DNA of 64,000 nt from contig OZ024746.1 in assembly GCA_964016885.1 (NCBI GenBank), forward strand, positions 35,650,001 through 35,714,000. The letters are read 5' to 3'. This stretch comes from Eledone cirrhosa. Lineage: Eukaryota. Of the stretch, positions 49,017 to 53,043 are shown piece after piece (position 1 is the stretch's first letter; every line of letters begins with the position of its first letter). The position numbers and the translations under genes were made by a program. The notes under the pieces are model-generated. The model did no database searches and was not told where the DNA came from. It saw only the letters and a program-made list of their open reading frames with translations.

Positions 49017-49784
49017 CGAATGTATAATTCATATCGTTTCTATTCAGGCTACTTCATTGTGCTCAACAGCCTTAAAGACCACACCATAAAGAATATCTCT
49101 GAAATCAATGAGTGAATAATAAGACTCGAAAGAATAAAGAAACCAAATGTCATCCTTCATTTGTAGAAACAAGTCAATATATACTCTAGGTACACATCTA
49201 TCTATATATCTACCTATCTATCTAAATGTTGCCTGTATATACGACTATCTATGTTTCCATCTATCTTTCGTTCTATCATTATTTACACACACACACACAC
49301 GCACGCACGCACACACACACACACACACACACACACACACATATATATATATATATATATATATATATATATAAATATTTACACATACACTAATTAAACA
49401 AAGTCACAGGTATATATGTGTTTTTGCATCTTTTCACGATGTGGCTCAATGTAGAATTAATAAATTAAATAATCAGAGCCAAATACTATAGAGTAAAGCA
49501 TGTCCAGAGCATTATTTGATAATATATATACATCATCTCTACTCCTAATCAGCATAATTAACCACACACAAAATCAATTAAACCAGGCTATAAGAATAAA
49601 AGGCATCTATGAAGAAACAGTAAATAAATACGCCACTGCGGCGTCTTTGCGTATAACCGCTATAGAATATTTACCCAACATTTCATAAGGACGTGGAAAT
49701 TAATTAGATATACGGTCAACCATACATAATTAGCTAAAATTTATGTTAGAAATGCTTATATACATACCAGGATTAAATCACTAA

Positions 49785-49863
49785 ATCCCGACCCAAGGGT
49801 TTCGCTCACTTTTGAGATACCTTATTAAGGATAATACTCGAGATTTAGAGCTCTTCGGGGGAC
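49785..49863 (-). ncRNA. Hammerhead motif (U4C in this copy)
   Basis: GTCCC-CCGAAGA-GCTC..GAGC-GAAA-CCCTTGGG-TC|-GGGAT. Confidence 0.68.
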
Positions 49864-50638
49864 AAACTCGCTAGGACATATTATTTTCCGAAGTGGCCCT
49901 CGCCAAACACGAATTCAAAATGGTTGAGAACTGTGACGTTGCAGTGGTCAAGTCAGGAAAGGTGTGATTGGTTTCTTACAGCGAGTGGGTTGGTTGCAAG
50001 AAAGCGCAGCCCAATATCGCCCAAATTTTTGTCTGAAGATTTAGGGATTTAATCCTGGTATGTATATAAGCATTTTTAACATAAATTTTACCTAATTATG
50101 TATCGTTGACCGTTTATTTAATTAATTTCCACGTGTTGTTGAATTGTTGGGTAAATATTCTGTAGCGGTTATACGCGAAGACGCCGCAGTGGCGTAGTTA
50201 TTTACTGTTTCTTCGTAGATGCCTTTTATTCTTATAGCATGGTCTAATTGATTTTTTGCGTGGTTAATTATGCTGATTGGGAGTAGAGATGATGTATATA
50301 TATTATCAAATAATTCTCTGGACATGTTTTACTCTATAGTATTTTGCTCTGATTATTTAATTTATTAATTCTCCATTGAGCCACATCGCGAGAAGTTGCC
50401 AAAACACATATATACCTGTGCCTTTGTTTAATCGGTGTATGTGTAAATATTTATATTTAATAATCTCCCATAAGGTTGAGATAAACATTTGGGCGATATT
50501 GGGCTACGCTTTCTAGCAACCAACTCACTCGCCGTAAGCAACCAATCACACCCTTCCTGACTTGACCAAAGTTCTCAACCATTTTGAATTAGTGTTTGGC
50601 GGGGGCCACTTCGGAAAATAATATGTCCTAGCGAGTTT

Positions 50639-50717
50639 GTCCCCTGAAGAGCTCTAAAACTCGAGTATTATCCTTAATAAGGTATCTCAAGTGTGAGCGG
50701 AACCCTTGGGTCGGGAT
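50639..50717 (+). ncRNA. Hammerhead motif (A13G in this copy)
   Basis: GTCCC-CTGAAGA-GCTC..GAGC-GGAA-CCCTTGGG-TC|-GGGAT. Confidence 0.68.
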
Positions 50718-53043
50718 TTAGTGATTTAATCCTCGTATATATATATAAAAATTTCTAACATAAAATTTACCTAATTATGTATGGTTGACCGTATATTTAA
50801 TTAATTTCCACGTGCTGTTGAAATGTTGGGTAAATACTCTATAGCGGCTATACGCGAAGACGCCGCAGTGGCGTATTTATTTACTGTTTCTTCATAGATG
50901 CCTTTTATTATTATAGCCTGCTCTAATTGATTTTTTAGTGTGGTTAATTATGGTGATTGGGAGTAGAGATGATGTATATATATTATCAAATAATTCTCTG
51001 GACATGCTTTACTCTATATTATATATATATATATATATATATATATATATATATATATATATATATATATATATATATATATATATATATATATATATAT
51101 ATATATATATATATATATATATATATATATATATATATATATATATATATATATATATATAATATATATATATATATATATATATATATATATATATATA
51201 TATATATATATCGTAGCACTCAATGCTGGTCCGATGTCCGTCTCGTTTGGTTTGTATTCCAGAGTTACGTCGGCTGCTTTAGATGTATTTGCTCATATAC
51301 ACTCGCATATCTGAGGAGATGTCGAAAAAACGTCGGGCCTCTTCAACTGGACAATTGGGATGTAAATATATATGGATATTCAAGTAAGCATCTATACAAA
51401 TCTATGACGATGTGAAGCGTAAGCAACACATTGAATGCCCTTAGGTCTCAACCACGCTTAAATCAATAAGCAATCGCCACACATATGCATGGAAACTGCA
51501 CAAAAAGGCATCTCTATATATTAATTACCAATTGCACAGAAATGCAGGTAATACAATATAAAACAAATCCAATTAAAGAGACATAAACAATTACACACAC
51601 ACACCCCAATTGTTTATACATGTGCAGTTTGGGCCCAGCAGATAAACATCATTTATTTTTAATTTTAGGCGTGATCTTCCTTGATGGAACCCGTATAATC
51701 TATAAAATCAAGAAGCAGTTCGCTTATTTTTTCAACTCAACCTAAGGAAAGGGATATTAGAGAATGTTAGAAATGATTATTAGTATTGTGTTAAAATTAG
51801 TTTTCTGTACTCAGACAATTGAAAATGATGGGTTTGGCCTAGAAATCATTAAGAAGTTCCTCTAATTTCAAAAATCAATTAAGACATACTTTATATATTC
51901 TGGACATAATTATTTAGGTTTTATTTAAAAAAAATTAAAATGGTCTAAATAAAATTATTAGCGTTGGAATTGATGTTCACGACATGAACCAATAATCTCT
52001 CGGCTGGTTCTCTGCTAAATTATTTTATCAACTAGTGTATGTGAAACACAGATAGAGGTATACATAAACAGTATAAAATAATTAGAAAACATTGTAAGCA
52101 GATAAAGTGAAAATGTCGTCAAGGCCACTAGATTTTACGCAGATAATTACAGCATCTCTGGAGTTCATCGGGTAACATTTATCAAATTGGTTTAGTTGTG
52201 TTTTCATTCTATAACCCTCTAGAACCTCCATGTATTCTCCTCTATAGGTCATCTGATAAACCCATTTAATTTTTAAGCAGTGACTTGATATTTATCTTTA
52301 TGTCAGCAATGTTGTTTTTACGTTTACTTTATGTTCGTTCGATGTGGTTTTATCTGAATAAAAGCTATATGTCACAATTTTTGAGGCATCGATTTAATAT
52401 TGACCAGGGCAATGCCAAGTTTTAGAAGCATATATTTTAAAATAGATCTGATTAACAAGAAAAACATATTTTCTTAGAATTGTAGGGGTGGCGAATATAT
52501 CTGGTAATGGAAAGATTAGAACGATACAAATTTAATATCACTTTTCCATTGAGATGTGGGGACTACAAATGATGAATATAAACGGAATGAAACGCATATA
52601 TCTTCAAATAAAATTATACGTGCCAAATGGAAATATATATATATATATATATATATATATATATATATATATATATATATATATATATACATATATGTAG
52701 AAATTAATTCTACAGGATTTTAAGAAAATAAATATTGGTATACTGTAGGTACGTATTTAGTAGCTTATTAATTGTGGTCACATCCCTAAATACATCGGGT
52801 ATCCATATATATCTATGTGTGTGTGTGTGGATATATATATATATATATATATATATATATATATATATATATATATATATATATATATATATATATATAT
52901 ATATATATATATATATATATATATATAGATATATATAGATAGATATATATTTATATATATATAGATGTGTGTGTGTATATATATATATATGTGTGTGTGT
53001 ATATATATATATATATATATATATATATATATATATATATATA

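Follow-up and report, generated by a model that had tools for sequence, protein, structure and literature searches.

A covarying hammerhead ribozyme with a predicted pseudoknot in a non-coding Penelope-like repeat of Eledone cirrhosa

In a window of 64,000 nucleotides of the Eledone cirrhosa genome (assembly GCA_964016885.1, contig OZ024746.1, positions 35,650,001 to 35,714,000), two related repeats, called here families A and B, carry hammerhead motifs whose helices differ in sequence while pairing is kept. An original prediction, made from the letters of the window, held that selection had preserved the ribozyme structure during family divergence and that the element depends on it. Is the structure indeed maintained, and does the repeat need it to spread? 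The window is AT-rich and microsatellite-dense, and the source genome measures 3.0 Gb. In our best explanation, to which we give a probability of about 0.7, the locus is an insertion of a non-coding repeat of ~680 nt with Penelope-like anatomy, which carries a covarying hammerhead and a predicted pseudoknot and in which selection likely kept a working self-cleaving fold. The demonstrated parts of this explanation are the architecture, two discrete TA-rich 3′ ends, the homology of eight subfamilies and the covariation.

The family-B locus is organized as follows.

49374-50037, minus strand: inverted, 5′-truncated family-B unit with a tail of ~115 nt, 93% identical to the plus-strand copies and ending in a (TA)n/(CA)n tract
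50038-50342, plus strand: tandem partial upstream unit, with its 5′ end 2 nt beyond the predicted cleavage site
50343-51018, plus strand: full family-B unit of 676 nt, its 3′ end joining (TA)n at the commonest family-B end point
51015-51211, no strand: (TA)n tract at the 3′ end of the full unit, likely the insertion target

With 51 aa as its longest stop-free frame, the family-B unit is non-coding. A genome search with the repeat gave 702 first-look candidates, which, as for all subfamilies, are not copy numbers; 40 were scored at 91-93% identity, and the contigs of runs X1 and X2 show no more than that similar copies are numerous. Inverted and tandem partial copies are mixed in most of the 30 B loci fetched, and the 3′ ends group at two TA-rich positions of the unit, ~308 (15/32) and ~425 (9/32). 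The anatomy is thus that of Penelope-like elements, with a partial tandem unit beside an adjacent inverted 5′-truncated copy, an optional 3′ tail, discrete 3′ ends and a microsatellite bias. It matches the insertions, including their 'tails', described in the text of PMC8557442, where the tails are of 30-40 bp as compared with ~115 nt here. The text of PMC11167929 describes internal priming that leaves an optional tail in a Penelope element.

A relaxed type I hammerhead scan predicts three hammerheads that are central to the question. Their positions (e.g. N7, H17, 10.1-11.1) follow the standard numbering convention.

50639-50717, plus strand: predicted type I hammerhead of family B with A13G (50700); stem I 50639-43/50713-17, core 50644-50, stem II 50651-54/50695-98, stem III 50702-11, predicted cut 50712/50713
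49785-49863, minus strand: predicted type I hammerhead of family B with U4C, core CCGAAGA
31424-31511, plus strand: predicted hammerhead of family A, for comparison; with its 5′ pseudoknot strand it starts at 31418

The plus-strand copy reads GTCCC / CTGAAGA / GCTC...GAGC / GGAA (A13G) / CCCTTGGG / TC / GGGAT; in the minus-strand copy, a second change disrupts pair 4 of the pseudoknot described below. Each copy of the window therefore has one core change, a different one, and an intact core is the family-B norm, as had been supposed from these two copies. The pattern combining an intact core and B stems has 106 exact matches in the genome, against 0 for the reversed control, and CTGA(A/T)GA and GAAA are found in 51 of the 56 B copies of the fetched loci. 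At the family level, the type I signature is complete: CUGANGA, GAAA and UH, with three helices round the core (96.7, 87.4 and 99.4% of cells paired) and an open stem I. Rfam hammerhead models do not match the element, whether at the gathering score or with E relaxed to 10; the 40-nt insertion in stem II is the likely reason. In genome stretches chosen blindly and totalling 800 kb, our own descriptor found 18 hammerhead-like matches, all belonging to other families; one shuffle gave 0. Single-sequence folds do not yield the hammerhead (z from -0.06 to 0.77, none better than shuffles), and an RNAalifold consensus recovers stems II and III only. The genome is very rich in hammerheads, with 47 clusters in the DNA fetched, several of which have a U3-A8 core (L106, L108, L252, L194, L198).

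The A and B units align end to end, with flanks 73% identical over 430 columns, so that the hammerhead position is homologous outside the ribozyme too. Compensatory changes had been claimed for all three helices. The claim stands for stems I and II, which together have 5 double changes in 11 pairs, and falls for stem III, where the two families differ in length by one pair. In stem I, which in family A has five pairs (ACTTC/GAGGT) rather than the four first described, two pairs changed on both sides (U-A to C-G, C-G to U-A), two changed on one side through G.U and one is unchanged. Stem II shows three double changes from A to B and one unchanged pair, while its fifth pair became U.U. In stem III, three pairs are invariant and the fourth, a C-G pair, is present only in B; there is no substitution, no pair changed on both sides, and the TT centre of the window copies is a minority state in B. 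The reported N7 = A and GUC triplet of B are correct; N7 varies inside B and D, and TC is also found in family F, so that N7 and H17 are labile and carry no weight. In neutral simulations run with the substitution rates of the flanks, at least 5 double changes in 11 pairs have P ~5e-5, and 0 of 400,000 runs gave both 11 kept pairs and 5 double changes. Compensation is thus real in stems I and II. Family-level covariation of such ribozymes is already in print (text of PMC4209133), and the covariation between two subfamilies is real, but expected.

A larger sample was assembled from the 800 kb of blind stretches, from further DNA searches and from two patterns. Of 203 ribozyme hits, 78 lacked a flank or were duplicates, which left 125 copies in subfamilies A to H. 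For families E-G and half of B, the selecting patterns themselves constrain stem II and the core. H serves as the outgroup, with local scores of 128-287 against a maximum of 55 after shuffling. The tree rooted in this way, whose weak nodes include that of A/E/F (0.115), places B as sister to the remaining 80 copies; it supersedes a midpoint tree where B nested in G. An intermediate form of stem II, opening with G-C and otherwise like that of A, has 433 exact genome matches versus 0 for the control, which indicates that the canonical G10.1-C11.1 pair is ancestral and the A-U of family A derived. With this rooting, three of the A/B double changes belong to the B branch and the other two to the A side. 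The U-A to C-G change at stem I pair 2 occurred twice independently, in B and in a subgroup of D, and family C has a G.U intermediate at this pair.

A balanced set of 52 rows was taken from the 125 copies and aligned with MAFFT; 89.1% of cells are paired versus 80.5 shuffled (0/500), slid controls reaching at most 49%; this comparison ignores relatedness. When the tree is taken into account, pairing is kept/broken 28/10 on internal branches versus 35/58 on terminal branches (Fisher p 2e-4), and 11 double changes lie on internal branches versus 2 on terminal ones. Hence, covariation does appear in a larger alignment of genomic copies, and the view that selection preserved the ribozyme structure, with stems I and II covarying, is supported more strongly than two families could allow. 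A third copy of this clan, A/F-like, lies in the window at 56657-57304; its inversion junction is in GAAA-CCATGG, 12 nt before the predicted cut.

Could the paired changes arise by mutation, without structural selection? Template-switch repair of hairpins is a known mutation mechanism, one arm being copied from the other, and ribozyme modules might also be swapped between copies. On the B branch, two stem II changes are adjacent and do resemble a dinucleotide swap. However, the arms are of 4-5 nt and 25-70 nt apart, and entire subfamilies represent G.U intermediates, C at stem I pair 2 and A at pseudoknot pair 5. The stem II strands enclose a loop that is homologous from one subfamily to another, and the excess of paired changes is absent on terminal branches. 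Such an origin, already disfavoured, is very improbable, and selection on the structure is the reading retained below.

A fourth helix, overlooked in the original prediction, may join the two covarying stems: a strand that precedes stem I is complementary to the 5′ side of the internal loop of stem II.

50632-50638, plus strand: predicted 5′ pseudoknot strand of B, CGAGTTT, directly upstream of stem I
50657-50663, plus strand: predicted 3′ pseudoknot strand of B, AAACTCG, in the internal loop of long stem II
31418-22 and 31442-46, plus strand: predicted pseudoknot strands of A, GAGCG and CGCTC
50663-50690, plus strand: distal hairpin extending stem II, a weaker candidate (76% of cells paired across subfamilies)

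In A and B, the duplex would have about -6 kcal/mol, and since neither of its strands is used by stem I or II, the helix would be a pseudoknot. Taken alone, it is paired in 89% of cells (0/500 shuffles), 5 of the misses being due to a one-column misalignment of family C, and double changes occur in 2 of its 5 pairs, the other three hardly varying. Pair 4 is U-A in B, C, D and G, C-G in A, E and F, and G-C in H (20/25 H copies), while pair 5 passes through U-A, U.U, A-U, G.U and G-C. Pairing is kept/broken 8/2 on internal versus 13/21 on terminal branches (p 0.03), at positions that the search patterns did not fix. The helix thus links the stem I and II regions by at least 4 pairs compatible with both stems, and it covaries, as in pseudoknotted hammerheads.

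Comparable pairings are found in other hammerheads of the genome. Clustering of 365 hits gave 47 families, in which pairing was counted at a score of at least 12 and stem II taken as long from 44 nt. With these thresholds, set post hoc, the pairing is present in 11 of the 16 long-stem-II families and in only 2 of the 31 with short stems; for the long-stem families, the comparison is with 12.5% of cross-family pairings (permutation p 5e-5). The 16 include three related members of the present clan, and in one family the pairing overlaps stem II. Unrelated long-stem families use other strands, e.g. GGAAA/TTTCC and GAGAAT/ATTCTC.

According to the text of PMC3088659 (Perreault et al. 2011), where the pseudoknot is likewise a Watson-Crick helix joining stems I and II, a pseudoknot is predicted for ~40% of representatives, drawn from all three types and with the human C10 hammerhead among them, and disruption lowered the activity of a type II example 20- to 100-fold. 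Compared with that text, figures aside, the present case differs in that the host is a high-copy animal retroelement, and the 5′ flank of an open stem I would join an internal loop within a long stem II. The closest published hammerheads share with ours type I topology, a short stem I, a short palindromic stem III, an enlarged helix II, many covarying families per genome and nearby opposite-strand copies. Here, helix II is of 44-60 nt with an internal loop and a distal hairpin, no unpaired base lies between 9 and 10.1, and stems I and II are linked by a predicted, covarying pseudoknot, a word that occurs 0 times in the main text there. More generally, no report of a pseudoknot in animal Penelope-type hammerheads was found in literature text, so that absence from print is a weak argument. 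Hammerheads, family-level covariation and pseudoknots have each been published, and, with the same weak force, no report was found that combines them in animal Penelope-type repeats.

The palindrome of stem III bears on the way in which the RNA would be cut. CCATGG is kept in 75 of the 80 non-B copies, as expected for dimer cleavage (text of PMC4209133). Perfect stem III palindromes are found in 28 of 56 B copies and, by hand count, in 46 among the 100 genome matches listed; among the same 100, also counted by hand, 9 have the TT centre, 34 CCCATGGG, 12 CCCTAGGG and 12 CCAAAGGG. The decay of the palindrome in B owes partly to its greater age. The 12 listed copies with CCAAAGGG also share a diagnostic loop, and so this lineage spread after palindrome loss. 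The self-duplex weakens from -17.8 to -5.2 kcal/mol for CCAAAGGG, and the TT form of the window, at -12.9 kcal/mol, could still dimerise; the monomer hairpin has -0.4 kcal/mol in B versus +2.9 in A. Palindrome loss in B fits either a release from dimer dependence or relaxed selection. A directional claim that B gained a stem III pair was dropped, since stem III is likewise longer in the outgroup H. Dimer cleavage by Penelope hammerheads is reportedly the subject of one earlier study, which could already describe the pseudoknotted form.

Taking these features together, it may tentatively be imagined, as a possibility that we hold to be somewhat doubtful, that animal Penelope-type elements carry long-stem-II hammerheads with a 5′-flank pseudoknot, which Rfam and descriptors miss and which cut fast when the flank is present, some B lineages being palindrome-free and cutting as monomers. 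If true, some elements now scored as hammerhead-free may contain the pseudoknotted form. In the text of Craig et al., 'half-core' cases with halves 35-50 nt apart provide a lead only.

Does the repeat depend on cleavage? In the mechanism that we propose, read-through RNA of tandem units would fold the hammerhead, and the 5′ flank would dock on the stem II internal loop, holding stems I and II parallel. The cut would then occur after GUC, in a dimer formed through the palindromic stem III for families A and C-G and possibly in a monomer for B. Cleavage would process or circularise some precursor RNAs, helping the lineage persist, and most insertions would come from uncut RNA, with internal priming at the two TA-rich sites. 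A copy with a whole ribozyme derives from RNA uncut at that site, and 5′ ends at the cut site number 3 of roughly 115, window locus included, in a hand-filtered tally (12 raw hits before inspection) where family E rows were swamped by (TA)n matches. In family C, the stem II pair that closes the core is fixed as U.U, and in family D two A.A mismatches are fixed next to the core at the stem II base, yet neither family is rare (2221 and 1615 first-look candidates versus 702 for B). It does not follow from covariation that the repeat needs its predicted self-cleavage to spread, and the claim that the element depends on the ribozyme goes too far. Family D (e.g. L157-L170), abundant with its two A.A mismatches, has a within-family compensatory change in stem I.

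These observations also lend themselves to another view, where the fold would be selected for something other than cleavage, either as a binding or folding element for a partner reverse transcriptase or as an early hairpin holding the ribozyme off. C and D have indeed been amplified with broken core-closing pairs, copies with full hammerheads derive from uncut RNA, and 2 of 5 single-sequence folds show the 5′-flank helix as a simple hairpin. Likewise, in an anole element, the one Penelope element assayed in vitro, ribozyme mutants did not impair insertion (text of PMC11167929), and Naiad elements thrive without canonical hammerheads (text of PMC8557442). Against this view, the catalytic core is intact in all eight subfamilies (P ~0.02 for the core staying intact, from A vs B alone), the helix leaves the strands of stems I and II free in A and B, and U.U at 10.1-11.1 is known to be tolerated in other hammerheads (text of PMC3088659; PMC7229834). 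We regard selection for a role other than cleavage as unlikely.

At the opposite end, the repeat could be a non-LTR retrozyme, the reading implied by the original prediction, in which a circular RNA of ~680 nt replicates and cleavage is essential in each cycle. A type I hammerhead in short tandem units (657-688 nt from cut to cut in four families) is in line with this, as is the proposal, in the text of bioRxiv 10.64898/2026.07.22.740005, that animal retrozymes are non-autonomous Penelope derivatives of 51-972 bp. Animal non-LTR retrozymes are also non-coding and AT-rich, with a type I hammerhead per tandem unit (text of PMC7229834 and of the same preprint), and hammerhead-bearing tandem units of this kind are found in loci L206, L046, L148 and L175, not at the window locus. 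However, long arrays are absent from the fetched loci, which hold mostly one to two units with inversions, and 5′ ends are scattered rather than at the cut. Compared with these retrozymes, the unit is about twice the typical ~300 bp and shows Penelope-type inversions and tails; the canonical loop 1-loop 2 contact is not seen. A retrozyme with obligatory cleavage is doubtful; it overlaps our best explanation and differs from it only in how essential the cut is.

The hammerheads of Penelope-like elements have low reported activity, and one in vitro system does not need its ribozyme. In its eight subfamilies, the clan offers a natural series where compensatory steps can be traced, wobble intermediates are present, and some forms are weakened (C, D) or lack the palindrome (lineages of B). 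Thanks to this series and to a specific predicted tertiary contact that can be broken and restored, the roles of cleavage and pseudoknot, and those of dimer and monomer cutting, become directly testable.

In the proposed explanation, the repeat is likely copied in trans by a Penelope-like reverse transcriptase (RT). Intact RT and GIY-YIG frames of 729-821 aa occur in the genome. Mobilisation in trans is something that we only infer, since no coding element attached or homologous to the unit was found among the one autonomous family and the loci fetched, a search that covered a minority of the genome's Penelope families. That family, of 781 aa, has no sequence in common with A or B units, and nine other long-stem hammerhead families did not reveal flank homology to the repeat. 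Coding fragments adjoining L012, L192 and L268 were rejected as partners, being separate insertions.

Other retroelements populate the window. At 32165-38761 lies a near-complete, frameshifted Penelope-like element with inverted and tandem repeats; its RT and C-terminal GIY-YIG (minus strand, 33460-35599) are 36-43% identical to the 781-aa protein, and its repeats carry hammerheads at 35786-35876 (minus), 32257-32347 (minus) and 38655-38745 (plus), which have the U3-A8 variant of the core and a stem III that is long and nearly palindromic. An inverted pair of 3′ fragments at 54133-56559 belongs to another Penelope-like family (GIY-YIG, PF01541) with many 781-aa frames elsewhere in the genome and a tandem period of 3115 nt in L251; our descriptor found no hammerhead inside its unit. 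LINE pieces at 23765-29117 (minus strand) comprise a zinc knuckle, an endonuclease, an RT and zf-RVT, and further RT frames lie at 20947-22410 and 40546-42789. Finally, inverted-repeat fragments next to microsatellites at 2618-3000, 16711-19410, 45229-45336, 53655-54053, 58152-59621 and 60645-61483 may be further Penelope-type insertions.
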